From: Nemertoderma westbladi
Taxonomy: Eukaryota > Animalia > Xenacoelomorpha
DNA length: 64,000 nucleotides
Direction of reading: 5' to 3'
Assembly (NCBI GenBank): GCA_032718475.1
Contig: JAUCBJ010009113.1
Location: forward strand, 11,722 to 75,721
How positions within the stretch are numbered: the first letter of the stretch is position 1; every line of letters begins with the position of its first letter. The position numbers and the translations under genes are program-made. This document shows positions 8,673-53,108 of the stretch, piece after piece. The notes below the pieces were generated by a model, which saw only the letters and a program-made list of their open reading frames with translations, did no database searches and had not been told where the DNA came from.

Positions 8673-8683
8673 ATAACGGATAT
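8673..8683 (+). promoter_or_regulatory. Candidate non-tRNA primer-binding site of the outer element
   Basis: ATAACGGATAT abuts the LTR end and is the exact reverse complement of ATATCCGTTAT at 7917-7927 inside the LTR. No TGG-type PBS lies next to the LTR. Confidence 0.6.
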
Positions 8684-8811
8684 TTAGTCTGTATTGCAGT
8701 GTAGGCACTAAATACAGTTTAATATTGTTCTGGTAAGAACAATAACGGATATAGCTTCTTTATTGCAGTAAGCAATAAAGTTGAAAGTACCGGTCAACCG
8801 GTAAACCTGAA

Positions 8812-11511: not shown

Positions 11512-13459
11512 TAATTGAAGAGATACGCCTATTCCTACTATTGGAAGAGACGGTAACAATACCTGCAATATCTTACTGTAAAGTTTGTAAATCAAATCAT
11601 AAATCCGACCTTCTCACCAAAACAGTAAACTCTAAGTAAGCGAATATATTGCAGTATCGATCTCTTATAACCGGTGAGGCAGAAAACAGTCTACGAGCAG
11701 ACAAACTTCGATAAAACAAAATCCCGCGCAGCGAATCCTAAAATCAGGCTGACTCACTGACGGACTAAAGGGCTCGTATACTTTGCCGCGGTGTGATTTA
11801 TATAGTTGGGCAAAGGGACGCTAGCTAGGTACAGAGGCAGATATTTGGAGATGTCTAACTAGCGAGCAAAGTGCAGTAAGGACGAAAGTTAATTTTATAT
11901 ATTTTGAGGTGTAAAGAATTTCTAACGCGCGTGTGTCAATTCTGAACGGTCAAAGCAGTTTTGCTCCTTCACATATATAATTACTGGGTACGGTGTGCAT
12001 TTTACGAATATTCTAATTTTATAACTTGTAGGTCCAATACTCACGAATGATAAGGTTCCTTCCCCTCTTGCGTATTTCCAGGACTCAAATTCAGGCATAG
12101 GGTTAATGCTACGCCCAGAATTCGGCAATTTTAGGTACCAGGTCCCTGATACTAAGAAGAGATGTGTTAGTTTACTACTGTAGGCGTACGGGTACTAATA
12201 GCTATCCTGGCTCCTATCTAGAATTTTAGTCACCCAGGTAGTCCGGGTAACTTCCTATTAGGGCGTTGGCGGGGACACGGTAGATGTTAGTATATCCCTG
12301 ATAGCCTCAATTTATTTGCGCCTAGTGTAAACTGCCCTACCGCCTGAACGGTACAATCCCAATTCAGGTGAAAACACAGCAACCCCCCTAGCCTACAAGT
12401 TCTAATGCAATGGACACTGTCGTACTACAAATAGTCGCACACACACCTGTACTTAGCAAGAGTTAAGCGTACAGTTTGCTGCACCCTAACCAATTGTATG
12501 CCTTGTACCGGTGTGCCTACGTCCTATCTGCGTACTAGTATCTGCCTGCGCTCTCTCCCTCCCCCGTAGGAATATGAAGGTCTACTGCGGTTTTTTCCTG
12601 AATCAAGACAGTACAGCCCCTATGATGTAATTTTAGGCTTACAGCGTGTCACTACGTCTACCTTTTGATCTTTTGGTCTTACACTTAGGTAGCAAGGATC
12701 GAACGCTGTCTAACCTTTCAGGCGATGGGCGAATAACTCTAGATGGTATTGCGGGTTGTCTCTCGTCTACATTCCCCCGATGTTCCCGTTCATTGCTGCG
12801 GCCCGATCTCTAGCCGGCCATCCTGTCCCTTAAGTTTGTTCACCGTAGTGAATCATGGTAAAACAGATAGAAAAGCAGATTAGCGATAATTCTGACTTTA
12901 TTACAGAAGATATAATTATAATACAATGTAATCTGAAATAAACTAAGCACGACAGAATATTGATAAGATAATCTGAGAAGTAGAAGTGAATATAGATTGA
13001 GATATAAGATTGAAGTAGTGAACTAATGAACGAAATCGCACCTTTATATACCAAATTTGTGCCGCAATCAATCGAGAAAATTCTCAATTGTTCTATGGGT
13101 TCTAACAGGGTTTTAAAGATAGCTATTGGTCCAGCTAATATATAACTTGCACGACATTGGTTACAATCAAATAACTACAGTCTCATTGGTACAGACAAAT
13201 GCAATTAATTTGTAGCGGTTAATTTAAATGAGTTGAAATTCTGCACAAAAAATAATTCGCAATTACTAGGATTCGAACTCGATACCTACTACACATATAA
13301 TTTCCAACGCTCTACCAACTGAGCTACTGAACCACTTGACCGATAGGCGCACAAATGATAGAACCAATACGAATGAGAACTCAAAGCAATCTTTACAAAG
13401 TTAATTCGAATAAAATAAAATTTTGAAAATCCATGGCATTTAGGGAATATAATTCTATA
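11512..13459 (-). repeat. 3' LTR of the inner element
   Basis: Minus strand reads TATAGAATT...CTTCAATTA. Matches 26461-28410 with at least 5 substitutions and a 2-bp indel seen by eye. Confidence 0.95.
13247..13333 (-). ncRNA. tRNA-derived Pol III-like cassette in the inner 3' LTR
   Basis: Minus strand GGTTCAGTAGCTCAGTTGGTAGAGCG...GAGTTCGAATCC...TTTTTT contains an A box, an intact D-arm (GCTC/GAGC), a B box and a T6 run. Acceptor, anticodon and T stems pair poorly, so it is not a functional tRNA. Confidence 0.7.
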
Positions 13460-14349: not shown

Positions 14350-16052
14350 TTATCGTTTTGTGGATCGAGCCCTGCCGCGTCCTCGAAAACTGCGCACAGG
14401 TGACTTTGCTCGCGATATGGGACTCGTGGGGCGAGTCACTGGTTTACTTGGGACGTTGAGAGACGGTGCGACCATTTCCTCACAAATTCGTCTATTTGGC
14501 ATCCCAAAACCTCGACCAATTCCTCGTGACCGATCAGTCGTCACTACAGTTGGTAGAACGTCTGGGAACGCGCGAGAAGTGGACGACGCAGACCCAAGAG
14601 TAGCTTGCGCCCCCTGTTGATCAGCTGGTGTATGTCCCGATCCTCCTACTGGTTCTCTTGGAAGTGATACCGTATCCCGAGTAACTCGAATAGTCGGCTC
14701 AACTCCCTTGCGTTCTTCTACATTAATAATTTTCTTTAATTGTTGGCCCACTTTCTGGACCCGTATGATCCTACCCTGTCCGTCCTCCCGAGGGTGACGT
14801 GCAGACGGCGCAACCGGAGTGGCTGATATATTTGTCGCCTCTAGGACCTCCTCTTCCTCGAATACGCTCGCTCGTATACGTTTGTGGTAAAACGCGGCTC
14901 GGTACGCCCATGCGACGGTTAATCAAGCTCCCTTGTTCCGCTTTTCGGTTCGGAAACGATCGAATTCACCATACGTAATCCGATTAACGACTTTCTGAAA
15001 ATTCCACGTGTTTTTGTTATCCGGGTGAATCTGTAGTAGATACTCGCGCACCACTCGGAATCCGCTGTCGTGGGGCAAAATATCGACAACCTCGATAAGT
15101 TCGTCATATTGGGGCATAGCGGAGATATATCCTTCCGACATCATCGTTTGAGGATTTACCGCCCAAAATCCGAGATGCGCTCTCATCGGAAACCGTCTTC
15201 TTTGTGCTGATACATGTTCGTCGGCTAAATCTTCCCACTCGTCAAATAATTTCCTCACGAGTTTTACAGATTCGTGTTCATAAGGTATGTCCCTTAGTTG
15301 GCATTCAGATGCTCGATGTCCCTTTATATTGCAATAAGTACATTGAGCCATAAATCTCCAGCAAGTATAAAAGGTATGAGACCCTTGATCCCCACACCAT
15401 CCACAGATTAGCTGAGTCGTAGTAATGTGCTTTCCACTGCACTTTGTCATATGATGTCCAGCGACGCCACATTTACTACACATCGTATTGGCAGGGTACC
15501 ACACTCGTTCGTATATAAGATCTCCAATCGGTCGAGCGCTTCCTCCCATACTATAATCGTAATCATCTGGGTCTATGGGTTGGTAGGTTTCTGAAGGTTG
15601 TATACAAACTATAGCATCTGTTGCTTCAAGTTGTCGAATCTCCGTCTGAGATTTCTTCGGGAGGTTCCTTTCTATCTCAAGAAGTTCCTCTAAAGGATCG
15701 TCGGCGATCGTAGTAGTTACTTCGAATTCATCACCAAGGTGACCGATAGGCGCGCGCGTCTGCCGTGATTCATCCATAATCTCCACGACACGCTCTCCTT
15801 CATAGGGCAACAATGCAAACACAGATGGCCCTCCGACAAGAGATCCCGCACAGCGAAGATGCACGTCTCGAAATATGCTAAATCCTGCTCGAGTAAAGGC
15901 ATTGCTGTCTTTGCGAGCTTCGCTGTACTTTCTGATAATTCCTTTATACCAAATATAGTGTAGTCTTTTGCTCCAAATCGTTCGAATGAAGCTGCCGCTT
16001 CCTCTTGGATATCATATCCCCATCTCGGCTCTCCTTGTATCCCTTTCTCCAT
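14350..16052 (-). pseudogene. Extra sense ORF after the integrase, with three CCHC zinc knuckles (one frameshift, one in-frame TGA)
   Basis: ORFs 16052-15717 and 15864-14923 overlap in different frames. 15864-14923 and 14751-14350 share a frame, separated only by a TGA. Motifs CSKCGVAGHHMTKC, CGWCGDQGSHTFYTC and CTYCNIKGHRASEC. Confidence 0.75.
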
Positions 16053-16710: not shown

Positions 16711-19479
16711 TTATTTACTAGTATTAGGTGGAGATTTGTAGTCTCCAGACTCGTTACGAGTCTCTTCAAGAAGTACGAGACGTTGAGTCGGTCTGTCTAC
16801 TGTTCGACCGTCAATTGTCCGTACCGTCACAGTTCTTGTCACTCCATCCATAGATGGATGTGTGGCTAAAATTACACCTGTTATCCAGAAGCGTCTTTTT
16901 AGATTCACTTCCGCTAACAGCACGTGATCTCCCGGCTTTAATGCGCGGGTGTTATTGTACCAGTTTGTTCTGGCAGAAATAGAGGGCAAATAATGGTTTT
17001 GCCATATTTCCCAGAATTTGTTAGAAAGTAGTTGCGTGATTTTCCACGCTTTTCTACCGTAGCTGTCGCTTTCTATTGGAATAGAAATCGGCGTCAATGT
17101 GGTCGGTGCCTGCATAAGCAGGTGTGCCGGTGTTAAAGCGAACTGAGATTGTTTGTCATCGGGTACTAATACTATTGGTCTAGTATTTAGTATTGCCTCG
17201 ATTTCAACAAACAATGTTGTCAGTTGGTCGTCTGTCAATATGTGGTTTACTGGAATGACCTTTGCCATTGCCGTCTTTATAGATCTAATCAATCTCTCCC
17301 AGACTCCGCCTCTCCAAGGACTATCTGGAGGATTAAACTTCCAAACAATCTTGTGAGGTTGTAGTTCGTTCGAGATTTGATCATGATCTAGTTTCTTAAA
17401 GGCTCTAGCAATCTCATTCCGAGCACCAACAAAGTTTGTCCCTTGGTCTGAGTACAAGCATTTTACTAGTCCGCGTCTAGCGATAAATCGCCGCAGTGCT
17501 AGTATAAACGCGTTGGTGGAAAGATCCATCACACGTTCAATGTGAACTGCCCTACTGGACATACATGTGAAAATCAGTCCCCAGCGTTTTACTAGTATAC
17601 GTCCACGTTTCGTATGTATGGGACCAAAGCAATCAATTCCAGTCTCTGTAAAAGGTGGTCTGAATGCTTGAAGTCGTGCTTGTGGAAGTTCACTCATTTC
17701 TTGGGTACCTATTCTAGAGTGTACCTTTTTACAAATAATACACGTACGCGTCACTGAACTTAACGCTTTACTGGGTCTAATTAATACAAATCTTGTACGT
17801 AAGTAGGAAAGACAGTGGTGTCTTCCAGCGTGTTTCAGATGTAAATGTGCGTCCAGTATCATTGCACGTTGTAGTTCGTGGTGTTGCGGTATTATTATTG
17901 GGTACCTAAAGTTTGTGTTAAAGTCAATGTTTTGAAGCCGAGATTTATGACAAATTAAGCCATTATAAATAATCGGACTCCAACTCAGTATTGGTGACGA
18001 CTTGATTGGTTGACCTTGATTTATGGATGTGAATTCGCGCGCGAAATATCGCAGTTGGTAATGGCGAATTAATTTAATCTCACACCTGTCAATCTCAGCC
18101 AATGTAAGTCGACGTGTAAAGTCACGTTTGCCTTTAACGTATTGTACAAAACGTACAATCCACGCTAATTTTCGGCAAGCGTTTGTCCAAGAATCTGTTA
18201 GGTTTACAATCCGGTCGACGTGAGTATTTGTGACGTCATCAGGTAAGTCAATGGAGATTTTGGAAGGTTTTGAATTACTAGAAGGGCCCATGGGTCCGCC
18301 GGTAAGTATTCCCTTGTTGACTGTTGATCCGTCCGGGTCTACAAGTAATTTGTCCTTCTTCGTCTTCTTACCTTGATCGTCAGTACTTTGTAAGTCGATC
18401 GTTAATGGTGGTTTGAACTCTATGGGGTCAGCAGGTTTCGGTAAACTTATTTTCCTGCCGACATTAATCCCAGGTCTCACCATAGGTTGCAAGTTTGGTA
18501 TGTCTCTTGAGCGCAAAGTAACACCTGTATTTACATTAGCGTAGGTACTACCCACATCTGTAATACATGAGGTTTCACCGTGCTTATGGTTGCTCAAGCG
18601 TGTCAAAATTGGTAGTTTGTCGATACAAGGCCGCTCCAATAGAGAAACTGCGGCTTTACTGTTTGTCAATACATTACTAATGTCCGGTAGAACATTTTGT
18701 GATGTTTCTGACAAAATGTCTAGTCGACTGTCTAGTAATGTGTCTGGCGATACGTCTGGTAACGTATCTGGTTGTTTGTCAATAGAAGGCCGCTCCAATA
18801 GAGAAACTGCGGCTTTACTGTTTGTCAATACATTACTAATGTCCGGTAGAACATTTTGTGATGTTTCTGACAAAATGTCTAGTCGACTGTCTAGTAATGT
18901 GTCTGGCGATACGTCTGGTAACGTATCTGTTTGTTTGTCAATAGAAGGCCGCTCCAATAGAGAAACTGCGGCTTTACTGTTTGTCAGTGTGTTACTAGCG
19001 TCTGGTGGAACATTTTGTGACATGTCTGGTTGACCGTCTAGTAACGTGTCTGGTTGACCGTCTGGCGATATGTCTGGTGTAGAAAGGCTCGCAAGTCTTC
19101 CTCTCTTGACCTTTGAAGTTATATCTTTCCATTTCGCCTTCGGTTTTTTCTTGAGTTTTGCCGCCGTCGTCCTTTTCTTTGTCTTCCCCTTTTTTGGTTT
19201 CTTGATTTCGGCGTCCTTAGGGATAGTGTTAGATTTGTTGTCGTATAACGGAGGCCAATCTTGCGTCGATTTCTGCAAGAATTGGGGTCCGTGTTGCCAA
19301 AATTCTTTGTTCTCCGGTTTACAGAATTCCTCAGGCATCATTCCTCGCGACGCAATATCAGCTGGGTTTTGTGGTCCGGGACAATGTCGCCAATCCTCTT
19401 TTATTGAACGGTCTAGAATTTCCGCGCGACGGTTAGCTACGAATGTCTTGAATTCGAGTGTGTCGTTGTTTATGTAAAA
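16711..19479 (-). CDS. Inner BEL/Pao pol C-terminal part: end of RNase H, repeat linker, integrase
   Basis: FKTFVANR, NPAD-like QNPADIASRG, HHCC zinc finger (HLHLKH...CIIC), DDE motifs GIDCFGP, SDQGTNF and GGVWERLIRSIK, and the BEL C-terminal FWEIWQNHYL. In frame with the upstream ORF across a single TAA. Confidence 0.93.
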   Translation of the reverse strand, partial: FYINNDTLEFKTFVANRRAEILDRSIKEDWRHCPGPQNPADIASRGMMPEEFCKPENKEFWQHGPQFLQKSTQDWPPLYDNKSNTIPKDAEIKKPKKGKTKKRTTAAKLKKKPKAKWKDITSKVKRGRLASLSTPDISPDGQPDTLLDGQPDMSQNVPPDASNTLTNSKAAVSLLERPSIDKQTDTLPDVSPDTLLDSRLDILSETSQNVLPDISNVLTNSKAAVSLLERPSIDKQPDTLPDVSPDTLLDSRLDILSETSQNVLPDISNVLTNSKAAVSLLERPCIDKLPILTRLSNHKHGETSCITDVGSTYANVNTGVTLRSRDIPNLQPMVRPGINVGRKISLPKPADPIEFKPPLTIDLQSTDDQGKKTKKDKLLVDPDGSTVNKGILTGGPMGPSSNSKPSKISIDLPDDVTNTHVDRIVNLTDSWTNACRKLAWIVRFVQYVKGKRDFTRRLTLAEIDRCEIKLIRHYQLRYFAREFTSINQGQPIKSSPILSWSPIIYNGLICHKSRLQNIDFNTNFRYPIIIPQHHELQRAMILDAHLHLKHAGRHHCLSYLRTRFVLIRPSKALSSVTRTCIICKKVHSRIGTQEMSELPQARLQAFRPPFTETGIDCFGPIHTKRGRILVKRWGLIFTCMSSRAVHIERVMDLSTNAFILALRRFIARRGLVKCLYSDQGTNFVGARNEIARAFKKLDHDQISNELQPHKIVWKFNPPDSPWRGGVWERLIRSIKTAMAKVIPVNHILTDDQLTTLFVEIEAILNTRPIVLVPDDKQSQFALTPAHLLMQAPTTLTPISIPIESDSYGRKAWKITQLLSNKFWEIWQNHYLPSISARTNWYNNTRALKPGDHVLLAEVNLKRRFWITGVILATHPSMDGVTRTVTVRTIDGRTVDRPTQRLVLLEETRNESGDYKSPPNTSK
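18620..19075 (-). repeat. 159-bp (53-aa) in-frame tandem repeat between RNase H and integrase
   Basis: CCGCTCCAATAG occurs at 18631, 18790 and 18949; protein TNSKAAVSLLERPxIDK x3. Confidence 0.9.
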
Positions 19480-22400
19480 TTAAACCAACGTCGCGTCAGT
19501 CCAATAAAATATCTGTAAACTCGACTGTAGTTCTGTCTGTATGAGGTTCACGATGGTGGTTGACAGGGTTGCGGCTTGTAGCTCAGCTCGTGGTGTCGTC
19601 ATATACTTAGTAGGCATGGTCTTAGCCTTAGAAGTAATGAGCGAAACATCGAACTCGTCTGAGTCTACTTGTCTGCGCAAGTACGCTGCCACACCAAAAC
19701 CGTTGTCACTGGCGTCAGAAAAACAGTGTAATTCCAAGTTGTCAGGAAATGTACTTTGTAATGGAAAGTAAACCCTGGGTATGAAATAATCCTCTAGCGA
19801 AGATAATTCCGCCTCCCAGGTCTTCCATAAGTCCACTTGGTCTGATGAGATCGGCTCGTCCCATGTTAGTCCATCCTTCCATATACTGCGCATATAAATG
19901 CGGGCTTGCAGTATCACTGGACTGATGAATCCTAACGGATCGAACAATCGGCTCAATTTTGACAAGCATGATCTCTTTGTCAGTGTGTTCTCTTGACTGT
20001 CCAGTCTCACCTTCACTCGAAAGTTGTCTGTGTTTGGGTCCCAAAAGAGCCCCAACACCTTAGTCGTCGGTAGTGGTTCGAACTCTAGGTCTATGTCACC
20101 ACCTCCACGCTCAGTCGTTCCGAATGAGTCTACTAATTCGGCACTGTTTGAGGCGAATTTGGTGAGGTTAAAACCTCCGCCCGCTAAGCAGTCCCGTAAT
20201 TGATGTGCTACTGTTGTAGCACGTTCTACTGTGTCGCAACTCTGTAAACCGTCATCGACGTAAAAGTCACGTTCTACGATTTTAATTATCTCTGGGTCAT
20301 ATAGATGTTTCTGATCCCTAGCGGCCTGCTTTAGGGCGTACATCGTGCAATTTGGGCTGTCTCTGGCACCGAAAACGCGAACTTGCATTTGGTAAGTCGC
20401 CGGTGGTAAACTTAAGTCTCCTTCCGGGTACCAGAGGAACCGCAAACTGTCTCTGTCTCGCTCTAACGCTCTCACTTGGTGAAACATCGCTTCAACGTCA
20501 CAAGTAAAAGCTACTTGACGCTGACGGAAGCGCATAATCACCCCCATAAGATAATTATTCATGTTTGGTCCATCCATCAACTCACTATTGAGGGACATTC
20601 CCTCAAATAGAGCCGCACAATCATTGACTACGCGTACTTTATCTGGTTTGTCGGGGTGTCTCACATAGTGATGTGGCAAGTAATATGTTTGGTCAGTCAC
20701 TATCTCCGGGTTAGTCATTCGGATAGCGTATCCTTTTGTCAAATACGTCTCCATCTGAGTGTTGTACTGCAGATGGGCTTTCTCGTCCTTTAATAGACGT
20801 TGCCGTATTGAATGTAGACGTCTTAAAGCCAGTGGGTAGTTGTTTATAAGTTTAGGACTTTGGCTACGCCATAACATCCCTACCTCATAATGTCCGTCTT
20901 TCGTCTGGTGGATAGTATCTTCCATGATCTTCAGAGATTGTTTCTCCTGTTCCGACATACAAGGTTCGTAGCTACCAGGTTCAGCTGTATCTTGTTCTAA
21001 CCACCTGATAGTCTTCTCCGTTAATTCTTTGTCCAAAGCGGCTTGTTCCATTTGATGATTTCTCAACACGTCATCATCGATATCGACGGGCACTGTTGAG
21101 GTTATTGGGGTAGGTAGACTCGCAAGCCTATCATGTGTCGTCGATGGAATCTCTAGCTGACTTGTCTTCTCCCCAAGTTCTAAACTCACCTGGTGGGTTA
21201 GCTGCTCCTTGTGACTTATCATACTAGTTACACGTCTGTCATGTTTTGTCGACTGTAGTGTAGTATGGTTCACGTCGTGTGAAAAGGAATGAATTGAATT
21301 TGTAGTTAATAAACTACATGTACTTTGTACATCGTCTTCCTCGTCACTTACGTCTAGTGTGCGCACAGGCGCTCGAGTATACCACCCTATCGGCGTTCTG
21401 CAGGCGTATGCGTTTCCCGCTACAACTGCCGATGGTCTGGTTTCCCACACCTGATGTAGGTTGAATTGGTCTGTCCCGATCAGCATGGCTACCGATCTAT
21501 AATTGACAGGACATTCGGGTACACCTAGGTGTCTGAAATACTTACGGTCCTCTAGAGATTGTTCCGGCACTGGACCTAGTAGATTACTAAAGTCCTTCGT
21601 GGCCGCAAAGGTTAGATCTTTAAAGGGCAACAAAGACCTCTCCCTCTCGCTGTGCTGCGATTTCGGAAGAAGAGAGTCTAAGTCCAACTTAACTCGTGTC
21701 ACTGGTATTGCACGCTGTCCGTGCATACTACTTACGGTATAACTGACGTGCTTACCTTGTTTAAGATCCGTCACTACGTCAGCTATCTTTTCATCCACGT
21801 AGCTATGAGATGAGGCTGAATCTAGAATAGCGTAGATTCTTTTACTCCCATTTGTGCCGGTAATCTTAATCGGAATTACACTGAATCCCTTCAGTTGGTC
21901 AGTAGTCAGAAGCGCGATCGACGGTTGTTCGTCTCCATTGGAATATTCGTCGTCGTCTTCTAACTCTTCATCCGACGATCCGGATTGTTCTGAGAAGCAA
22001 TCCTCAATATGGGTCACGAAGGTTGGAGTCGTTTTCGATTCTCGCCTTTTGTAGGCCGCATCACATCTCGCTGCTGCTTCCGGGTGTTCCCTGGCGAAGC
22101 GTTTCGTCGGCGTGTGGCTGTCTGTATGGAGCAGACCGTCATGGTTGCGTCCACAGGATGGACAAGTGTCGGTATTTGGGCAATCTTTACGGACGTGTCC
22201 GTGTCGCGTACACCGCCAACAAGAGTCCAGTGGCCGTATTTGCAGCCGTCGTTCTTCCGAGTTCAACTCGCGAAATTGTCGACAACCTCGTAACTTGTGA
22301 CCGATATACCGCTTGCCTAAATGCTCGCAGTATTGGCAGCCGCTGAAGTCGGTACTAAGTTGTTGTCTCGTCTGTTTTGTCCCAATGGGCGCAGATACCC

Positions 22401-25400
22401 TACTACCGTCCGAGAATTGTCGTGATTCCGTCGGTGTGGTGTAAGTGGCCGTCTTAGTGGATGTTGTCTGGGGTTTTTGTCGGTTGGAGGATGGCAATGT
22501 GATCCCTTCTGCCACGATGTGCTGGTCAGTGTAGTTAGATCGAGTTTCTACTACTGCCTCCCTGGATATTAAAAGGTACACATCTTCTAATTTTAAGAAT
22601 CCTCCCCGCTCTTCTCGCTGGTATTCGACCTTTCTCCACTCCCGACGAAGTCGATGGTGGAGTCGTCCTATGATCTTTAATAGGACTGTAGGGGTATTCC
22701 CGTAATCAAGTTGTCCAATGGATCTTAAGGTAGTGATAGCGTTCTTGATCTCGTCAGCTAGTTTTAATAAGTCGACGGGTTTAGTGATAGCCCCTCCCTT
22801 ACAGAGTTCCTCTATTACTGACCTGGCCATACTAACTGTACCTCCGTATATCGAAGTTAAACGATCGTACGCTAGTTCAAAAGCGTCCGGTACACCGACG
22901 AAAGTCTCCGCCAAACGTTTAGGTTCTCCTGACAACGTTTGGAGCAGGTAATCGAACTTCTCCCGTGATGTAAAGGCGCACACGGCGATCTGGGATTCGT
23001 TATAGTCTACGAAAGTATGCCAGTGTTTTGAGCTACCGGAAAACTTCGGTGGTTGTTGTACCGGCAATCCCTGTCTGGCTGCGAATTTCGCTATCTCCTC
23101 GGCAACGTTCAGAGTTTCGCGTCCTTGGTTGGTACGCTGGTTGATATCCCTTCTTGGCGCTTTTCCCTGATACGATGTGGGGTTTGAAGGTACCGGTCTT
23201 TGTGGTTCCTTCGGGTGTCTATTGTGTTCGAATTCGGAATTTCTCGAACTGTCGGTGTAACCTTCCTCCAGACGTTCCTCGATCTGAGCCAACTTATTGA
23301 CAACTGGTCGCAGAATGTCGGCGAACTGTTGTGTACTAATTGCGTCCGTTGGTTGTAACGCCTTCTGTGTTGGTGTATTCTGTGGAGGATTGTCTGCAAA
23401 GGAGTTGTCTGAATGCTCGCGTTTATATTCATCGGCCGCCCCTGTTCTAAATACCTCGCGTTTCGGGTAATCCGATTCGCTCGAAGTACTACTATCATCC
23501 GGATATGGTGGTCGACGTGCTCGCGTCCGTTGCGTCGTTCGAATTCTAACGTTCCGTTTCGGAACATCGTCCACTGATCTCCGTTGTTCGGTAGGCTCAC
23601 AAGTCTTCCTCGAAGTCGTAGATTGCGATGTAAATTGGTTGAATGGTCGCGTATCCACTGTTCTCCGTTGTTCGGTAGGCTCACAAGTCTTCCTCGAAGT
23701 CGTAGATTGCGATGTAAACTGAACCGGTGGGCGAATGACAGCATTTGAAACAACTGGCCTTGTGGGTCGAAACGTCATTGGGTAAGCGTAGTGTGTAACG
23801 GGTTTAGGTGTCGACGGTGGACTCACCTGTTTAGTCGTCAGTAGTGCAGGTCCAGTCAACAAACTACTACGATCCGTAATCGGTGGGTTACTTACCTTGA
23901 CTTTCGGAATGGGCGACGACGTTGCTCTTGGCGGTGTAAACTCGTCCGGAATAACAAACCTGTGTTCCGTCGCACCATGGATAGGAGAAATGTTACTACT
24001 ACCCGCAATCGAAACAGGTTCCTTAGTCGTAACTGGTGCAAACATATGAGTTACCTGTGGGAATCGTTGACACAAGTCCTTTACTAATTGTCGTTCCCGT
24101 CCGGGTGCTCCCACGCTTCCTTCCTTCTTCCGTTCCTGAATTTGGCGATGTCTTACCTCTATCTGGTCCAAGTCATGTCCGTCTCGAGATCTCATTGATC
24201 GATCGCGGGCTAGAAGATCCAGATTTTCCTTGGCTTCGGCTACTTCTCTCGCCTTCTTCTCGAGTTCGAAATGGAGTTTAGCTGTCTTCTCTCGTTGTTC
24301 CGTTTGTTGTCGTTGCGCCTCAAACTCCGCTTGTCGTATAGCGGATTGAGCTTTTATTTGCCGTGTTTTCATTTCGGCCCGTGCTTCCGAAACTAATCTT
24401 TCTCTCTCTAAATCAGCCGCTGCGTTTCGTCGCTCTAAATCAGCCGCTGCGTTTCGTCGCTCTAAATCAGCCGCTGCGTTTCGTCGCTCCAAATCAGCCG
24501 CTGCCATTTGTCGCTCTAACTCGACCGCTGCGTTTCGTCGCTCCAAATCAGCCGCTGCGTTTTGTCGCTCCAAATCAGCCGCTGCCATCTGTCGCTCTAA
24601 CTCGACCGCTGCGTTTCGTTGCGCTAAATCAACCGCTGCTGTTTGTTGGGCGATGTCTACCTCTAACCTTTCTACTTCAGCTGCTTCTAATTCAGCTTGT
24701 TCCTGTAGATGAGAGATTCTCGCTACATTTGCAACGCGCAGCTTCTCTTCCTCTACTGCTGCCTGCATCACTAGAAGTTGAGCTTGTTCCTCGATTTCTC
24801 GTTGTTGTTGGTAGAATTCTTGCTGTTGTCGAGCAACTTCTGACGTGACCATACTTCCCTCGCAGATTTCGCTACGAATACTTACCAGCGATTGATTTAG
24901 TATTCCCGGTGCCGATTCGATTTGTGCGAATGAAGTTTCCTTCGTATATTCCGGCACGGTTTCCAAATCACCGACGTCTTCGCCGCACATGCGTAAGTGG
25001 TCCGTCAGGTGTTTCAATTGTCCATCCAGTCGGTACAGTTCCTGTTCTTCCTCGGGTTGTAATAATTCGTCCGAAACTGACTCACCTAACAACTGGTCCG
25101 CTTGTTCCTGTTGTATCTGTCTAATCGTCGACTTAAACTGAATCAGTTTCTCTCTAGCGATCATTAGTTTCTCGAGGATTCTAAGTTGAGTATCCACGTC
25201 CTGTCTCTGTCTAGCTAGATCTTGTAGACCAATTAGGTTATCTACGGACTTGTGTACTCTACTTTGTACTCTAACCTGGAGGGTGTAGAACTCGAATCGA
25301 GACATCGGAGCGGTCAACTCGTCTAATGTGCGTTGGCCTTCCCCAATACTCCTGGTTATATGCGCCATATATCCTCCGACGCTTCTAACCACACTTTCTG

Positions 25401-25650
25401 TGCTTCCTGCTGAACTTACCATGTCCGATTCCCTATATCTAGGTTGCGGAACAATTAGAAAGTCCTCGGTCCTGCCGTCGCCTCGTACTACGGCATCCGG
25501 TACTCCCGTTGGATGTACTGGTGACGCACACGGTGTAGGTTCGGTAGGCTCGCGAGTCTTCCCCTGTTGTTCTTCCGCTGCTGACTTATCTCCGTTGCAT
25601 GAGTCATAGTCGGTAGGTGTGTTCTTCGTATAGTCTTGTTTGTCACTCAT
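19480..25650 (-). CDS. Inner BEL/Pao gag-protease-RT-RNase H polyprotein, ending at a premature TAA
   Basis: BEL-type knuckles CWRCTRHGHVRKDC and CPSCGRNHDGLLH; protease ILDSAS; RT YYLPHH...KVRVVND, DVEAMFHQV, FYVDD; Pao-type RNase H LHCFSDASD and TPRAELQAA. Confidence 0.95.
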   Translation of the reverse strand: MSDKQDYTKNTPTDYDSCNGDKSAAEEQQGKTREPTEPTPCASPVHPTGVPDAVVRGDGRTEDFLIVPQPRYRESDMVSSAGSTESVVRSVGGYMAHITRSIGEGQRTLDELTAPMSRFEFYTLQVRVQSRVHKSVDNLIGLQDLARQRQDVDTQLRILEKLMIAREKLIQFKSTIRQIQQEQADQLLGESVSDELLQPEEEQELYRLDGQLKHLTDHLRMCGEDVGDLETVPEYTKETSFAQIESAPGILNQSLVSIRSEICEGSMVTSEVARQQQEFYQQQREIEEQAQLLVMQAAVEEEKLRVANVARISHLQEQAELEAAEVERLEVDIAQQTAAVDLAQRNAAVELERQMAAADLERQNAAADLERRNAAVELERQMAAADLERRNAAADLERRNAAADLERRNAAADLERERLVSEARAEMKTRQIKAQSAIRQAEFEAQRQQTEQREKTAKLHFELEKKAREVAEAKENLDLLARDRSMRSRDGHDLDQIEVRHRQIQERKKEGSVGAPGRERQLVKDLCQRFPQVTHMFAPVTTKEPVSIAGSSNISPIHGATEHRFVIPDEFTPPRATSSPIPKVKVSNPPITDRSSLLTGPALLTTKQVSPPSTPKPVTHYAYPMTFRPTRPVVSNAVIRPPVQFTSQSTTSRKTCEPTEQRRTVDTRPFNQFTSQSTTSRKTCEPTEQRRSVDDVPKRNVRIRTTQRTRARRPPYPDDSSTSSESDYPKREVFRTGAADEYKREHSDNSFADNPPQNTPTQKALQPTDAISTQQFADILRPVVNKLAQIEERLEEGYTDSSRNSEFEHNRHPKEPQRPVPSNPTSYQGKAPRRDINQRTNQGRETLNVAEEIAKFAARQGLPVQQPPKFSGSSKHWHTFVDYNESQIAVCAFTSREKFDYLLQTLSGEPKRLAETFVGVPDAFELAYDRLTSIYGGTVSMARSVIEELCKGGAITKPVDLLKLADEIKNAITTLRSIGQLDYGNTPTVLLKIIGRLHHRLRREWRKVEYQREERGGFLKLEDVYLLISREAVVETRSNYTDQHIVAEGITLPSSNRQKPQTTSTKTATYTTPTESRQFSDGSRVSAPIGTKQTRQQLSTDFSGCQYCEHLGKRYIGHKLRGCRQFRELNSEERRLQIRPLDSCWRCTRHGHVRKDCPNTDTCPSCGRNHDGLLHTDSHTPTKRFAREHPEAAARCDAAYKRRESKTTPTFVTHIEDCFSEQSGSSDEELEDDDEYSNGDEQPSIALLTTDQLKGFSVIPIKITGTNGSKRIYAILDSASSHSYVDEKIADVVTDLKQGKHVSYTVSSMHGQRAIPVTRVKLDLDSLLPKSQHSERERSLLPFKDLTFAATKDFSNLLGPVPEQSLEDRKYFRHLGVPECPVNYRSVAMLIGTDQFNLHQVWETRPSAVVAGNAYACRTPIGWYTRAPVRTLDVSDEEDDVQSTCSLLTTNSIHSFSHDVNHTTLQSTKHDRRVTSMISHKEQLTHQVSLELGEKTSQLEIPSTTHDRLASLPTPITSTVPVDIDDDVLRNHQMEQAALDKELTEKTIRWLEQDTAEPGSYEPCMSEQEKQSLKIMEDTIHQTKDGHYEVGMLWRSQSPKLINNYPLALRRLHSIRQRLLKDEKAHLQYNTQMETYLTKGYAIRMTNPEIVTDQTYYLPHHYVRHPDKPDKVRVVNDCAALFEGMSLNSELMDGPNMNNYLMGVIMRFRQRQVAFTCDVEAMFHQVRALERDRDSLRFLWYPEGDLSLPPATYQMQVRVFGARDSPNCTMYALKQAARDQKHLYDPEIIKIVERDFYVDDGLQSCDTVERATTVAHQLRDCLAGGGFNLTKFASNSAELVDSFGTTERGGGDIDLEFEPLPTTKVLGLFWDPNTDNFRVKVRLDSQENTLTKRSCLSKLSRLFDPLGFISPVILQARIYMRSIWKDGLTWDEPISSDQVDLWKTWEAELSSLEDYFIPRVYFPLQSTFPDNLELHCFSDASDNGFGVAAYLRRQVDSDEFDVSLITSKAKTMPTKYMTTPRAELQAATLSTTIVNLIQTELQSSLQIFYWTDATLV

Positions 25651-26449
25651 TTCGGTAGTTGTAAGTCAAGTAAAGTGAGTGTCAAAGTATCGAGTTTACC
25701 GTATTTATCTAAACGGTACTAATTACAGTCTTATAAAATTAGCCTACCGGCCGATTTTATAGCAGATGGATAAAATTAGCCTAAAACGGCCAATTTTACA
25801 GCAAATAAATGTCACGGAATAAGTATATAATAAAATTAGCCTAGCGGCCAATTTTATAACAAATAAATCGGATAACGATATGCGTTATCAAAAGGTAAAT
25901 TAAATACAATAATACGGACTAATTCAGCAACGAACAAAGAAATCATACGGAATGCATAAATACTTGAGACAGTGGAACCCACAATAATTTTAACTAATAC
26001 GGTAATGCCTAACTTATTTATGCAACTTTTCGAACTCACCCACTCCAATAATTCTCCAGAAAAACAGATTCCCAGATACAAACCGGACGTGAACCTTTCC
26101 GTTTTTAACGTTGCGGACGAAACGCGATTTTCCCAACCAAAGTTGTTGAGTTATCTATCTCCCAAACTTGCTAAACACGGTCTTGCTCCCGTTACAGTCT
26201 AGAAATGAGTTCTGAATCCTGAAAAACAAAAGAGTTAGGTTTTACTTTACGAAAAATTTTTGTACCGGTACAATATGGTATTTAAACCCTTTTAAACACC
26301 GGTATTCAATTCCAAAAATATTTTACACGCGGTTCAAATCAAATTTTATTTCAAAAAATTAGCACTTAGCTAATCAAATACAAAATTTTTACCTCAAAAT
26401 ACAAAATTTTCAAATAACTTTAGTCCTACCGAACCGTAGTTCAGTAAAA

Positions 26450-26459
26450 CATATTCCTA
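26450..26459 (-). promoter_or_regulatory. Candidate non-tRNA primer-binding site of the inner element
   Basis: Minus strand TAGGAATATG starts 1 nt after the 5' LTR and is complementary to sense-strand CATATTCCTA in the LTR (27518-27527). No TGG is present. Confidence 0.5.
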
Positions 26460-26460
26460 A

Positions 26461-28410
26461 TAATTGAAGAGATACGCCTATTCCTACTATTGGAAGAGAC
26501 GGTAACAATACCTGCAATATCTTACTGTAAAGTTTGTAAATCAAATCATAAATCCGACCTTCTCACCAAAACAGTAAACTCTAAGTAAGCGAATATATTG
26601 CAGTATCAATCTCTTATAACCGGTGAGGCAGAAAACAGTCTACGAGCAGACAAACTTCGATAAAACAAAATCCCGCGCAGCGAATCCTAAAATCAGGCTG
26701 ACTCACTGACGGACTAAAGGGCTCGTATACTTTGCCGCGGTGTGATTTATATAGTTGGGCAAAGGGATGCTAGCTAGGTACAGAGGCAGATATTTGGAGA
26801 TGTCTAACTAGAGCGAGCAAAGTGCAGTAAGGACGAAAGTTAATTTTATATATTTTGAGGTGTAAAGAATTTCTAACGCGCGTGTGTCAATTCTGAACGG
26901 TCAAAGCAGTTTTGCTCCTTCACATATATAATTACTGGGTACGGTGTGCATTTTACGAATATTCTAATTTTATAACTTGTAGGTCCAATACTCACGAATG
27001 ATAAGGTTCCTTCCCCTCTTGCGTATTTCCAGGACTCAAATTCAGGCATAGGGTTAATGCTACGCCCAGAATTCGGCAATTTTAGGTACCAGGTCCCTGA
27101 TACTAAGAAGAGATGTGTTAGTTTACTACTGTAGGCGTACGGGTACTAATAGCTATCCTGGCTCCTATCTAGAATTTTAGTCACCCAGGTAGTCCGGGTA
27201 ACTTCCTATTAGGGCGTTGGCGGGGACACGGTAGATGTTAGTATATCCCTGATAGCCTCAATTTATTTGCGCCTAGTGTAAACTGCCCTACCGCCTGAAC
27301 GGTACAATCCCAATTCAGGTGAAAACACAGCAACCCCCCTAGCCTACAAGTTCTAATGCAATGGACACTGTCGTACTACAAATAGTCGCACACACACCTG
27401 TACTTAGCAAGAGTTAAGCGTACAGTTTGCTGCACCCTAACCAATTGTATGCCTTGTACCGGTGTGCCTACGTCCTATCTGCGTACTAGTATCTGCCTGC
27501 GCTCTCTCCCTCCCCCGTAGGAATATGAAGGTCTACTGCGGTTTTTTCCTGAATCAAGACAGTACAGCCCCTATGATGTAATTTTAGGCTTACAGCGTGT
27601 CACTACGTCTACCTTTTGATCTTTTGGTCTTACACTTAGGTAGCAAGGATCGAACGCTGTCTAACCTTTCAGGCGATGGGCGAATAACTCTAGATGGTAT
27701 TGCGGGTTGTCTCTCGTCTACATTCCCCCGATGTTCCCGTTCATTGCTGCGGCCCGATCTCTAGCCGGCCATCCTGTCCCTTAAGTTTGTTCACCGTAGT
27801 GAATCATGGTAAAACAGATAGAAAAGCAGATTAGCGATAATTCTGACTTTATTACAGAAGATATAATTATAATACAATGTAATCTGAAATAAACTAAGCA
27901 CGACAGAATATTGATAAGATAATCTGAGAAGTAGAAGTGAATATAGATTGAGATATAAGATTGAAGTAGTGAACTAATGAACGAAATCGCACCTTTATAT
28001 ACCAAATTTGTGCCGCAATCAATCGAGAAAATTCTCGATTGTTCTATGGGTTCTAACAGGGTTTTAAAGATAGCTATTGGTCCAGCTAATATATAACTTG
28101 CACGACATTGGTTACAATCAAATAACTACAGTCTCATTGGTACAGACAAATGCAATTAATTTGTAGCGGTTAATTTAAATGAGTTGAAATTCTGCACAAA
28201 AAATAATTCGCACTTACTAGGATTCGAACTCGATACCTACTACACATATAATTTCCAACGCTCTACCAACTGAGCTACTGAACCACTTGACCGATAGGCG
28301 CACAAATGATAGAACCAATACGAATGAGAACTCAAAGCAATCTTTACAAAGTTAATTCGAATAAAATAAAATTTTGAAAATCCACGGCATTTAGGGAATA
28401 TAATTCTATA
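26461..28410 (-). repeat. 5' LTR of the inner element
   Basis: Direct repeat of 11512-13459, flanked by the TSD CGGAC at 28411-28415. Confidence 0.95.
28198..28284 (-). ncRNA. tRNA-derived Pol III-like cassette in the inner 5' LTR
   Basis: Second copy of the A box/B box/T6 cassette, ~125 nt from the LTR 5' end. Confidence 0.7.
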
Positions 28411-28415
28411 CGGAC

Positions 28416-31400
28416 TCCCGTTTGATTTATCAGAAGCTGCCTGGGAAGACATACACCGGATGGGAGTAGCCAAAGAAACCATAGATCCCGCTGTGTGGAA
28501 GAGGTCCGCAGCCGGATACGCACAGGGATTCTTCAGCTCTATGGAGCGAGTAGAAAAACAACTGTTACAACAACCTCAGGGACCTCAAGAGCAGGGACAG
28601 CTGCTTTATCAAGTAAGAGAAAGAATTCTACGAATCAGGTTAATATTATCGGCCTTTGAGGAGGCTTCTAAACGAAGACAAGACACGTCGTTGCAAGTTG
28701 CCGTAAAAACTTGGTTTCAACGGGTGAGTCGCCAGGTTCAAGGAACAGCTCAGTGGAAAGCTCAGCTAGAGGAGCGATCAACCCATGGAGAATCAACAGA
28801 CGCTACTTTTTCCCAAGTGGAAAGTGAAGCGACGGCAGAGAAACCGCATAAGAGGGATGCCATTGACATCTATCTGTCGGACTATCAACGTTTTTTAGGT
28901 AATGACGAGTTGAGGAGAAGGTTAGAGGGACTTAGCCCTAATAGTGAAGGAACCAAGCTTGTGTTGGATGCCATCGATGTGGAAATGAGAGCTGCGAATC
29001 AGGCTAAATTCGATGAACAACTCCGCATCGCTAGAGACCAAGAGGAAAGGGTTAAGAAAAAACGTATAGAAGACAGAAAGGCAGCGGCAGTAGCAGCAGC
29101 AGTGGCATCGGCAGAAGCGGAAAGAAAGGCGGCAGCGGCAGAGGCAGAAGCGGGAAGAAAGGCGGCAGCGGCAGAAGCCGAAGCGGAAAGAAAGGCGGCA
29201 GCGGCAGAGGCCGAAGCGGAAAGAAAGGCGACAGCGGCAGAGGCCGAAGTGGAAAGAAAAGTGGCAGAGGCAGTAGCAGAAGCAGAACGGAGAGCGACTG
29301 AAGAAATCACCCAGTTAGAATTGGAAAACATTCAGGAGAATCAAGACTGCATAAATAAACAGTTAACAGCTAGCAATATGCAGATGATGAATCGATCTAC
29401 TCCCAAACGACAGGGATATACATCATCTGAGGAAGGTGATACCACCGATACTGAAGGCAAAGGAAATAGATCTCGTTTAAGCAGACGTAAAAGAACATTC
29501 CACCGTCAGAAATTGCCTGATTTGCCTCCAGCTGTTAGAAGGCAACTAAATAACACCAACTTAGGTAGTACAGAGCCCACAGACCAAATAATTAAAATAG
29601 AAAGACTCCCTACTATAGTAGATGAGCCTGAAATAATTAGGCCTGTTCTTGAAATCACCCCTTCGGTGATAGACATACCTGTGCTCCCTGAGACTACCTC
29701 TAAATTCCCTTTGCATAGCACTAAGCTACCTGTGCCCCGTAGAACTGCCCCGGATACAGTTCAGGTCCTGGACCCCGAGCGAATTATTCATAATTTGTCG
29801 CCCGTTGTCCCTCGTCCGCCCGCTACAACGTTGGCGACTCCCGCTTCGGCGGTCGAATGGGTGGACGAGAGACGGCGGGGGATGGATATCCTGCTCGGGC
29901 AGATGCAGGAGACTGTCCAGCAATTCAAGGGCACAGTAAGGGAAAGTAGGCTAGAGTTGCAAGAAGTGCAGCAAAGTATCGCGCTCGAACGCGATAAATT
30001 AGTAAACACACAAAGGGGTATACCACCACCCTCAGTAACAATGTGTCAACCTGTTAGGTCTGAAGTATCTCATGCGCAAGGTGTGGAGCCTACACGCATA
30101 TATACTGCTAGCGAAGTCGAAACTCCTATAGTGAACCCTATTAAGGGTAATTATATGCCTGTTGATAATGACATTCCCTATAGAGTTTATCATAATCCGA
30201 GAAATTTATATACCGATAACTCGATATTAAATAACACGATGGCCCAAGAAAGTTTTACGCGTCAAATGGCTAGAACCGAAGCCCGGCAAGCGGTGAAGGT
30301 GGGAGAGATAGTCAAATTCAATGGAGATGAGATGAAATGGTTACCTTTTAATGAATATTACAAAGATAACATACAGAACTCTGTACTATCTAATGGAGAA
30401 AAACTTAGATACCTCATCGAGTGCTTGGAAGGATCTCCCAAGTTAATGGCGTTAAAGTTTATTGGACATCCAGACGGATTAAGACAAGTTTGGGACACAC
30501 TAAACATCAGGTATGGTAATAGGAATAATATCGCTAAGTATTTATATGCAAAATTAGTAGCGCCCAGAAAGTTCATCAGCAGTGGGATAATAGAGTTTTC
30601 CGATGAGATTCAAGTGATCTGTAGACAATTAGATTGGTTAGGTAAGTCTCATGAATACCAAAGTTCTATGGTCATTGGAGCTGTGGCTTCTACTTTACCG
30701 AAAGGTGGGGTAGGCACACGCTGGGATAAGAAAGTACTATATATGATGGAACAACAACGACGAGACCCTACCATGGCTGATCTCATGTCATTCTTGGATG
30801 GAGAAGTGAAATTGCAACTCCTCAAGCAGTCCCGAGAGAAGACACCGGAAAACAAGGTAAGTGAAAAACCCGTCTCTAGGAGAAAGGTAACACCAGTGTG
30901 TTATACAGACGACGGCGAAAGCCAGACTTCTCAAGGAGAAGATAGCGGGAAAGACACTGATAGATCTTATTATGTCAATAAAATGCCTAAAGATCAGGTA
31001 AGTAAATTCAAGTCTCGAGCAAATGACAGGAGAGAACCGATAAGAAAAACTCCTCCCACGTCTCCCAAGAGAATTCAGGTGAGAAAGCCCGAAGAAAAGG
31101 CAAGTCTACACAATGTGACTCAGAATAAAGTAAGTAACATCAAACCGAAATGTGCGCTGTGTGACGGGACCCACCATTTGAATAGGTGTGATGAATTTCT
31201 AAAGAAATCATTAACGGAGAGACGCGAAGTCATGTGGGATAAGCGGTTATGTTATAATTGCCTCAGACAAGGACACCAACGGCGAACCTGTTTCTCTGAC
31301 ATAAGGTGTGCAAAGTGTGGTGCGAAACATCATATCTTGTTGCACGCTGAATTCGATCGAAATAGTCCGAATCAGGTAAGTGATTCCGAGCTACATGTCC

Positions 31401-32983
31401 AATTCAGTGATGTGAACGACACTGATCAATCTGAGATGGAAGGATTCTATACAGACGAGTTCTCCGACGAAAACGAATCCTGTTACATGATAAATACCGC
31501 AGTGTATCGAGCACTCACATATGAAAAAGATACAGACAACGACTTTACTCTAACTACTTCTGAGCGACAACCATCTTGGAAAGAGCCATCTTCCAATGTA
31601 GGGATCCGAGAGTTTCCTGTGGTGCAAGTAAGGGTTCACGGACCTGAGAGGAGTTATGTAGTGAACGCCCTCCTTGACTCCGGTAGTACAGGAACATTCA
31701 TCGACAAAGAGCTAGCCGAAGATATATTTGCTGGACAACCCAAGTTCCAAACTAAGCTCAACATGTCCGGCATTATGCAAGTTTGGAAATCTACAATAAC
31801 AGCTGATTATTATGTAGGCGCGTTGTCCACCCCACAAGACGAACTAGGAGAACATAGCATAAGGTCAGTGAAAATGGTAGCTATAAAGAACTTCGCTACT
31901 ACTCAAGCAGACCTTTATAATTGGGACGAGGATGAGAGCATCCAACATCTTAACATACCTCGATTCCAGACTGATTATCCTGGAGTGCAAATACTCATCG
32001 GCCAAAACGCGCATGAGGCGCTGGAGACATTAGAGAAACGGCCTGCTCAACCGCAGCCACTACAGACCTATGCGGTAAGAACTAGAGTAGGTTGGTACTT
32101 TACTGGCCCTTCCCGTAGAACACTCAGAGAAAGACTACCGCCAGAGAGCGTATGCCAGGTGAGTGAATGGGAAGATGATACCAGTGAGGGAGACAACTTA
32201 ACTGAGGGAACTCCATACTCCTCAGATAATGACGACGTTCACCAGCTTTTTGATGAGGAGAATACCATCGATCTCCTTAAGGAAAACGAGGCTTGGCAAA
32301 ACCAAGTGAACTTATGTCAACTTCTCTATCCATCTGAACGAGAAGCTTACAACGACGAGTTAAATGACGTCATTGAGCGTTGCAATGCCAAGACTCGAGA
32401 TGAACATGCTGTACGATTCTTTACGCAAGAGGCGGTAGAGCCCAATTCCTACGATAAAGCCTTGTCGGTGGAAGAGGAAAGGGCCAAGCAGATCCAAGAG
32501 ACAACTACACGTTTCCTCAAAGATCAAGGAAGGTACGAAGTCGGTTTACCTTTTCGCAAGAGAGAACCGAAGTTCATCAATAACAGACCTTTGGCGGAAA
32601 AAAGAATCGCGCAACTCCATCGACGCCTTACGGCTAATTCTTCAGCTAAAGCAATGTATCAAACGCAGCTGGAAAAATTTATTAGTAAGGGATACGCAGA
32701 GAGAGTACCGGAAGAAACACCTATGACTGAAAGAACGTATTACTTAACTCACCATTACGTTCCTAAACCCGGTAAGCCACACGAAGTGAGAGTAGTGTTT
32801 GATGGCTCCGCTCTTTACATGGGTCAATCCCTTAACTCTGAATTGTTACCCGAACCCAACTTGCTTCAATCTTTGTTGGGAATTCTTTTAAGATTGAGAC
32901 AATATTCGATTGCTTTCGCCTCCGATATAGAAGGCATGTTCTTACAAGTCAAGGTGCTAGATAGGGATCGAGATAGTAATTAA
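28416..32983 (+). pseudogene. Outer BEL/Pao gag-protease-partial RT
   Basis: Knuckles CALCDGTHHLNRC, CYNCLRQGHQRRTC and CAKCGAKHHILLH; protease ALLDSGS; RT start YYLTHH...VRVVFDGS...SDIEGMFLQV. It stops abruptly at DRDSN* before YxDD. No RNase H or integrase is found downstream. Confidence 0.93.
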
Positions 32984-36538: not shown

Positions 36539-36543
36539 GACAC

Positions 36544-52787: not shown

Positions 52788-53108
52788 AGCTTAGCACGTC
52801 TTTAAATTTAGATATAATTGGTTCTTTAACCTCAATAATTATGATTGGTTAATTTAACTAAAAATTTGAATGACTGTACTCCTTCCCTTAATTAATTATT
52901 AGAATGCACTTAAATCTGCTTCAAATATTACAGTCTGACAGTAGGCGCAGGCCTACAGTACATCGACGGAAGAGTGCACTCTCAATGGTATTATTATGCC
53001 ATTGTATTCAGTTCAGCCCAAGGACTACTATACTATCAGACTATATTACAGGACTGGCATACTGTTGTACTGCCTGATCCTACTTCGCTAGGGGTCCTAC
53101 TAAATACT

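Follow-up and report, generated by a model that had tools for sequence, protein, structure and literature searches.

A probable self-encoded primer for reverse transcription in two nested BEL/Pao retrotransposons of Nemertoderma westbladi

How does a long terminal repeat (LTR) retrotransposon start minus-strand DNA synthesis when no recognisable transfer RNA (tRNA) primer site follows its 5' LTR? The question is raised by a 64,000-nucleotide (nt) stretch of the Nemertoderma westbladi genome (contig JAUCBJ010009113.1, positions 11,722 to 75,721 of the forward strand; hereafter the window), which contains two nested LTR elements, the inner on the minus strand inside the outer on the plus strand. 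No TGG was found in the first 40 nt after the LTR of either, upholding for the inner element what the initial annotation had said of it. By their domains both belong to BEL/Pao, a family in which the start of reverse transcription is poorly understood and assumed to be tRNA-primed (profile of the International Committee on Taxonomy of Viruses, ICTV; PMC8742986). Both elements very probably prime minus-strand DNA with a segment of their own LTR, whether internal to the transcript or close to its cap, because 11 nt after the LTR pair with a stretch of that same LTR, and among copies the two strands of the pairing differ at matching positions. The features on which this reading depends are:

26461..28410, minus strand: inner 5' LTR, 1950 nt, with TA...TA ends rather than TG...CA
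26450..26460, minus strand: primer-binding site of the inner element (post-LTR nt 1-11), with nt 1 (26460) mispaired in this copy and nt 9 (26452) polymorphic
27517..27527, minus strand: partner in the inner LTR, the putative self-primer, with 27525 polymorphic and opposite 26452
27532..27538, minus strand: possible partner of a 7-base-pair (bp) extension, pairing with post-LTR nt 13-19
7476..8672, plus strand: outer 5' LTR, 1197 nt, with TG...CA ends and a 5-bp target duplication
8673..8683, plus strand: primer-binding site of the outer element (post-LTR nt 1-11), without TGG
7917..7927, plus strand: partner in the outer LTR, 11 perfect pairs from nt 1

The sequences and coordinates first reported for the inner element are all correct. 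Post-LTR nt 2-11 (26459-26450) form ten Watson-Crick pairs with 27518-27527, in a partner that begins 884 nt into the 1950-nt LTR, and nt 13-19 can form seven more (one of them G-U) with 27532-27538, in competition with a local hairpin. Dinucleotide shuffles equalled the 10-bp match in 35, 51, 61 and 100 of 5000 cases when its start could slide by 1, 2, 3 and 5 nt respectively (p ~0.007-0.02), and this match alone is modest evidence. The 11-bp match of the outer element was equalled in only 5-14 of 5000 shuffles (p ~0.001-0.003). The initial annotation had warned that shuffled LTRs might often match equally well, which these counts do not bear out. In both elements the pairing ends sharply at 11 nt on both sides, and no similarity between the inner and outer LTRs was detectable. 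The proposal that two elements with unrelated LTRs both retain complementarity between LTR and primer site, pointing to a self-encoded primer, is therefore backed by the shuffles, as it is by the matched polymorphisms and relatives described below.

Other copies of the inner family were represented by contigs of five public runs (X1-X5) aligned to 26100-28450 and 26385-26530; X5, guessed to be RNA, did not cover the primer site or the partner, and among the runs listed as containing the sequence none is recorded as RNA. At nt 1 (26460), the base that pairs with 27517 accounted for 100%, 99.4%, 100% and 100% of depth in X1 to X4 (26, 21, 16 and 2 contigs). The window copy is atypical at this position, and since the other copies carry the pairing base, the family pairs over exactly nt 1-11 from the LTR edge, like the outer element. 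Within the partner, 27525 was variable, with the variant at 13% of depth in X1, 15% in X3 and 94% in X4 (22, 19 and 1 contigs). A compensating variant at the opposite position of the primer site, 26452, was predicted before it was found, at 25%, 22%, 19% and 31% of depth in X1 to X4 (13, 11, 9 and 1 contigs). This matched polymorphism is of the kind that the initial annotation had proposed to look for, as covariation, across family copies. Substitutions reaching at least 2% across the 146 nt of 26385-26530 made up four rows (26452, 26460, and the rare 26422 and 26430), among which 26452 was the sole one of intermediate frequency. A TGG insertion or joint was sought at the LTR end of the other copies and none was present, a one-base insertion being the only length change. 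As these copies share the leader without such a joint, the window copy has not lost a TGG site by deletion, contrary to an explanation that the initial annotation had allowed for. One divergent X4 contig aligned solely over 27512-27542, comprising the partner and its 7-bp extension, with unalignable flanks.

Relatives of the elements were drawn from animal BEL/Pao contigs contaminating prokaryote assemblies. Several such assemblies (L002-L015, G001-G010) contain whole animal BEL/Pao elements as host contamination, with 68 matches in G003 alone. Eight members of the clade and three TGG controls were tested, out of 14 loci and 19 stretches that partly represent the same contigs; left out were L046 and L047, in which TGG was seen, other loci without a readable LTR-leader junction, and a small element with a 331-bp LTR nested in L010, whose orientation in the test was probably wrong. 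The LTR ends of L004, L008 and L009 were placed by eye on collapsed or cut contigs. A scan of metagenomes yielded one short, uninformative locus, and a scan of viral contigs yielded 72 pattern matches, none of them confirmed. In a quick tree with support from the approximate likelihood-ratio test (SH-aLRT) only, without named sub-lineage references and with the outer element covering 36% of columns, inner and outer element group as sisters (86) and fall with all non-TGG elements in one branch (99% SH-aLRT), outside which the TGG elements lie.

None of the eight relatives with a readable LTR end starts with TGG, and six of them match their own LTR over exactly 11 nt, five across a predicted splice junction. 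A test for contiguous matches in four relatives gave 4-8 nt and nothing significant. Under a strict rule for donor and acceptor, the match in L002, L005 and L009 is exactly 11 nt long and spans a GT-AG junction that lies immediately ahead of an AATAAA (equalled in 0, 1 and 0 of 300 shuffles); the other five relatives reach 4-8 nt and the three TGG controls 3-4 nt, and in the window elements no splice junction improves the match. Between L002 and L005, three base differences at the exon ends are mirrored by three matching bases in the primer site. Three further relatives matched only after a second loosening of the rule, which admitted any GT/AG and an offset of up to 5 nt, the TGG controls being scored under the strict rule only: L052 (11 nt, 2/200 shuffles) and L008 (11 nt, offset 5, 14/200 shuffles) with consensus-like splice sites, and L003 contiguously (11 nt, offset 4, 3/200 shuffles). 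Seven of the relatives have a complete LTR, and in five of these a poly(A) signal is found no more than about 35 nt beyond the partner, an arrangement that would leave a short repeat like that of Tf1.

Direct support exists for the complementarity, for its placement at the LTR edge and its 11-nt length, for the matched polymorphisms and for the recurrence of that length in relatives. How the partner becomes a primer depends on its position in the RNA, for which the following features of the inner LTR are relevant:

26219..27665, minus strand: GT-AG intron, 1447 nt, holding both the partner and the primer site
27848..28001, minus strand: TATA-like motif at 28001 and AATAAA at 27853, as motifs only, not mapped
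27267, 26753 and 26706, minus strand: second AATAAA, second TATA-like motif and GTGAGT donor respectively, as motifs only

In X4, a single contig of depth 250 connects 26217 with 27665; its shorter arm is 27 nt, the ends read GT...AG on the element's strand, and a pyrimidine tract and a branch motif accompany the acceptor. The joint was sought in X1, X3 and X5 and was absent. Removal of this intron eliminates the partner and the primer site and keeps the gag start at 25650. The joint implies a transcript start upstream of 27692 and a partner at least 165 nt inside the RNA, or about 440 nt inside should the promoter be the TATA-like motif at 28001. Hence the evidence leans, by a modest degree, towards a self-primer internal to the transcript and not at its capped end. 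The summed contig depth of X4, highest at 28000-28300 and lowest in the intron, was not used, because depth cannot rank parts of a gene. Over 26781-26925, an X4 contig shows A-to-G changes in a cluster on the element's strand; X1 and X3 lack them, and they look like ADAR hyper-editing of the element's RNA, which suggests RNA in this run. A second B-box-like motif lies at 27655 (minus strand), beside the observed splice donor and within a 490-nt stretch free of TTTT (27814-27325).

By analogy with Tf1, the partner (27527-27517) would anneal to nt 1-11, the element's RNase H would cut 3' of 27517, and the reverse transcriptase (RT) would extend the primer into the unique 5' (U5) region of the LTR. 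Plus-strand synthesis would then copy the primer back into the primer site, and because of this copying a change in the partner would reappear there. The splice joint and the motifs suggest that transcription may start upstream of 27692, at the TATA-like motif of 28001, with the spliced RNA, lacking partner and primer site, probably serving as the Gag-Pol messenger RNA (mRNA), and the unspliced RNA as the genome. A cut at 27517 detaches the upstream RNA from the template; therefore either the RNA would have its 3' end downstream of 27517, as the AATAAA at 27267 would allow, or one RNA would prime the other. Strong-stop DNA would end at 27516, and the AATAAA at 27853 lies upstream of the cut.

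Several other explanations could produce parts of this pattern. An account by chance, in which long AT-rich LTRs yield such matches at random and the window copies have lost a normal primer site by deletion, would suit the inner 10-bp match taken alone (p ~0.01-0.02, with 45 of 12,970 internal start positions in the inner element reaching at least 10 bp). However, the shared leader of the other copies, with neither TGG insertion nor joint, largely refutes this account, and the outer match, the matched polymorphisms and the relatives are independent of the inner 10-bp count, leaving it extremely improbable. Selection for a long-range RNA structure, acting in packaging, dimerisation or a splicing switch, with priming by a host RNA or protein, is improbable: selected helices covary too, and internal tRNA fragments prime some Copia elements that lack TGG, according to the available text of two reports (PMC6317226, PMC10886601), but the primer sites of the two elements and eight relatives have no common sequence for one host RNA. 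Instead, each matches its own LTR, with an 11-nt match beginning 0-1 nt from the LTR edge in six cases (4-5 nt in L003 and L008), where a helix would block a host primer. A scheme identical to that of Tf1, in which the packaged RNA starts at 27527 (7917 in the outer element) and its first 11 nt are the primer, while an upstream-start spliced RNA and a downstream TATA promoter give separate mRNAs, would simply explain the sharp 11-nt stop in both elements by a capped 5' end. Tf1 itself uses its first 11 nt (PMC7175516), and Tf2 is described as having alternative starts with and without the primer (PMC5341516); base composition shifts near 27810, and the contiguous partner in L003 lies about 27 nt after an AT-rich motif. 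Set against this, no TATA motif was found about 30 nt upstream of the inner or the outer partner, the splice joint implies RNA from upstream of 27692, and relatives keep exactly 11 nt across junctions far from a TATA motif (about 220 nt after it in L009 and 100 nt in L008). Because of these relatives, the 11-nt length needs no RNA 5' end, and a Tf1-identical start is judged unlikely, albeit with a real share of the probability.

A different source of the primer was suggested by the sequence just beyond the primer site and by a tRNA-like cassette near the far end of the inner LTR:

26423..26450, minus strand: hairpin after the primer site (nt 11-38), 12 bp with a C(UACG)G loop
26475..26501, minus strand: hairpin near the U5 end
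28198..28298, minus strand: tRNA-like cassette, with an A-box-like motif at 28277-28266, a B-box-like motif from 28229 and a T6 run at 28203-28198

The initial annotation had paired nt 14-36 with 28275-28298, and this pairing is as described, with 12 and 8 pairs (nt 14-25 and 29-36), four of them G-U, no mismatch within the helices, and a partner overlapping the 5' part of the cassette (28298-28275). Hence an RNA polymerase III transcript of the cassette, in which A box, B box and T6 run are intact, might anneal there as a primer or primer helper. The 20-bp pairing reaches -26.9 kcal/mol, against -18.4 +/- 1.8 for shuffles, and was equalled in 0/200 shuffles and 0/267 internal 23-mers of matched GC content, while its antisense reaches only -15.5 kcal/mol. 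However, the stretch scored for the 20-bp pairing was picked with hindsight, and with nt 12-45 fixed in advance z is only -2.5 (60 mononucleotide shuffles). The duplex starts 13 nt from the LTR edge and stops midway through the A box, where no RNA 3' end would lie, and nt 11-38 form the local hairpin, missed by the initial annotation, which competes with it (-15.5 kcal/mol, z -4.56, 0/200 shuffles). A variant at 26430 (0.3-3.4%) converts a G-U pair of this hairpin to A-U and breaks the long-range pair. Neither an A/B cassette nor a pairing of the nt 14-36 type was found in the outer LTR or seven relatives, and the tRNA-like sequence of the Helenus LTR is not complementary to its primer site in the available text of PMC10886601. 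Within the window the A and B box motifs are confined to the two inner LTRs. ARAGORN predicted no tRNA genes, Rfam gave no match at E <= 1 over 5000-64000, and no cloverleaf fold of the cassette was found (fold z -0.7). The cassette is thus a very improbable source of the primer, although the initial annotation had offered this pairing as an alternative; a role as a family-specific helper, opening the hairpin or pairing the 5' and 3' ends, is possible. A supporting stem-loop at the U5 end is a trait of the Tf1/sushi self-priming group; the hairpin near the inner U5 end has z -2.85 (2/200 shuffles), its outer counterpart z -1.54, and relatives are not consistent in this respect. Within this U5 hairpin, 26 nt upstream of the primer site, is a near-copy of it (26486-26476), and deletion variants between the two were seen as loose contig ends. 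The outer primer site also has a near-copy, about 70 nt downstream in the leader (8736-8751), accompanied by the last five LTR bases.

A number of observations nevertheless weigh against self-priming by an internal LTR segment. The splice joint comes from a single contig of a run labelled 'DNA?', itself a guess, and the letters between its two sides are not known. The best pair of motifs, TATA at 28001 and AATAAA at 27853, places the partner in U5, and with a cut in cis the repeat needed for strand transfer would be missing; the clearest TATA motif of the outer LTR (8218) lies downstream of the partner. X1 and X2 come from one sample, which may be the source of the window. The 26452 and 27525 variants are unphased, the contigs being about 60 nt long, their frequencies disagree in X4 (31% and 94%, one contig each), and the 26452 change alone still pairs as G-U. 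Variants on 26100-28450 are known from 40 of 128 rows, and other changes in the partner may exist. Among relatives, L002, L005 and L009 come from one assembly, the LTR introns are predictions, L007 matches over 8 nt by script (53/200 shuffles) and 10 of 11 across the same junction by eye, and L004, with an incomplete LTR, has no significant match. The comparison of primer sources covered the elements' own LTRs rather than host tRNAs or small RNAs, and we infer the priming, the cleavage, the RNA ends and the complementary DNA (cDNA) intermediate from sequence. A fuller reading is tentative, though possible: that a large branch of BEL/Pao in aquatic animals swapped the tRNA primer for an internally cut 11-nt self-primer, which some families assemble by splicing; that in the inner family splicing removes primer and site, deciding between genome and message; and that priming may occur between two packaged RNAs, with the cassette helping to open the hairpin.

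The remaining anatomy of the window is as follows:

28410 to 11512, minus strand: inner BEL/Pao element, 16.9 kb
11512..13459, minus strand: inner 3' LTR, 1948 nt, with a short purine tract immediately before it that ends at 13460
28411..28415 and 11507-11511: target site duplication of the inner element, 5 bp
16711..25650, minus strand: inner gag-pol, a single frame with DUF1759, zinc knuckles, protease, RT, Peptidase_A17/RNase H, integrase and DUF5641
14350..16011, minus strand: two extra inner 3' frames (14923-16011 and 14350-14922), in the same phase with a single TGA between
28416..32983, plus strand: continuation of the outer element's gag-protease-RT frame beyond the inner insertion, stopping inside RT
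35347-36538, plus strand: outer 3' LTR

The borders of the inner element are backed by the 5-bp target duplication and by empty-site contigs, and its two LTRs differ at seven positions. Their TA...TA ends are a trait of the family, since they are the same in both inner LTRs and, for the U5 end, in other copies, and recognition by the integrase would be unusual. The gag-pol frame is interrupted by one in-frame TAA (19482-19480) in the RNase H region. Domain matches include Peptidase_A17 (expectation value, E, 2e-41), DUF5641 (E 3e-21), DUF1759 and Integrase_H2C2, and the closest database proteins, about 40% identical, are BEL/Pao proteins of molluscs, sea urchins and corals. Inner and outer proteins share 29% identity over the main aligned stretch. 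The extra frame 14923-16011 has three knuckle-like cysteine/histidine motifs (zf-CCHC, E 0.0012, below the curated cut-off) and could encode a nucleic-acid chaperone; an Atlas comparison of it gave only leads below 0.9. Remnant frames in the 3' region of the outer element have no clear similarity. Flanking the outer element are a plus-strand frame at 6555-7364, with a hydrophobic stretch and 66-nt serine/threonine repeats, and a 166-codon plus-strand frame at 36541-37041, for which no Pfam match was found; the outer insertion possibly interrupts a host membrane-protein gene. Satellite arrays occupy 1-4700, 39850-52800 and 61619-64000, and include a 64-nt perfect repeat and an approximately 147-nt repeat whose orientation inverts near 42165; another array lies at the right end.

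The mechanism proposed here, an LTR-encoded self-primer, is a known one in a family for which the searched literature does not describe it. No report of self-priming in BEL/Pao was found in that literature, which covers few subscription papers or Repbase reports and no supplements, such that a prior mention is possible. The available text of surveys of Sinbad, metazoan BEL/Pao and molluscs has no mention of a primer-binding site or tRNA (PMC554778, PMC3118150, PMC6238403), nor is a BEL/Pao self-primer described in that of PMC8220671, PMC6934838, PMC3601003 and PMC13524379. The window adds a matched polymorphism, predicted and then found within one family, and a first hint of an internal primer. 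If correct, self-priming is not limited to Ty3/gypsy and Copia but arose in a third family of LTR elements, and in animals; the primer would not have to be the RNA 5' end, implying a scheme of cleavage and strand transfer unlike that of Tf1. It would also explain the primer sites missing from tRNA-based annotation of many BEL/Pao elements of marine invertebrates, and would place such elements beyond the control that host tRNA fragments exert. With the sites defined to the nucleotide, mapping of RNA ends alone would suffice to test the idea.

Among known systems, the inner element has the proteins of BEL/Pao (protease, RT, RNase H, integrase and BEL-type domains) in the gag-pol order of the Belpaoviridae, together with two LTRs, a purine tract and a 5-bp target duplication. 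The ICTV profile of 2021, which calls BEL/Pao replication poorly understood, gives an 18-nt tRNA-Arg or tRNA-Gly site, LTRs of 0.2-1.2 kb and genomes of 4.2-10 kb (PMC8742986), whereas neither window element has such a site, and the inner one has 1.95-kb LTRs, a length of 16.9 kb and TA...TA ends. It is nevertheless filed in BEL/Pao because the family is defined by proteins, and the tRNA primer site is treated as not universal. Helenus is a precedent for a tRNA-like insert in an LTR, and Kojima found that the tRNA-like part of Helenus, Cassandra and Ajax is not complementary to the primer site, as far as the available text goes (PMC10886601). These elements resemble the inner one in having tRNA-like A and B boxes within the LTR, but are short and non-coding with a tRNA primer site, whereas the inner element is long and coding without one. 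Cer7 of Caenorhabditis elegans, a BEL-type element, has been proposed to use its own tRNA-like primer, located in its internal 3' region, and not an 11-nt LTR segment.

Self-priming without a tRNA primer site is better known from Ty3/gypsy chromoviruses, namely Tf1 and Tf2 of Schizosaccharomyces pombe, Tj1, Tf1/sushi and Tcn1 (PMC7175516, PMC4600332, PMC5341516, in their available parts), being a proposal for Tj1, Tf1/sushi and Tcn1, as for the plant Copia lineage TAR (PMC4600332, PMC6317226). The lineage of TAR, Houba and Osr-1 shares with the window elements a self-primer predicted from sequence outside Tf1/sushi (PMC6317226), and differs in family and in its plant hosts, implying an independent origin. 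With the Tf1 group the window elements share a primer site that adjoins the LTR, is 11 nt long and can pair with the element's own LTR, in place of a tRNA site. In Tf1, RNase H cuts between bases 11 and 12 of the RNA (PMC7175516); for the window elements such a cut is proposed by analogy. The inner partner begins far within its LTR and probably inside the transcript, and in relatives the partner is assembled from the two sides of a predicted splice junction. Hence the window elements, BEL/Pao by their domains and not chromoviruses, would work in a Tf1-like manner without being members of the Tf1 group.

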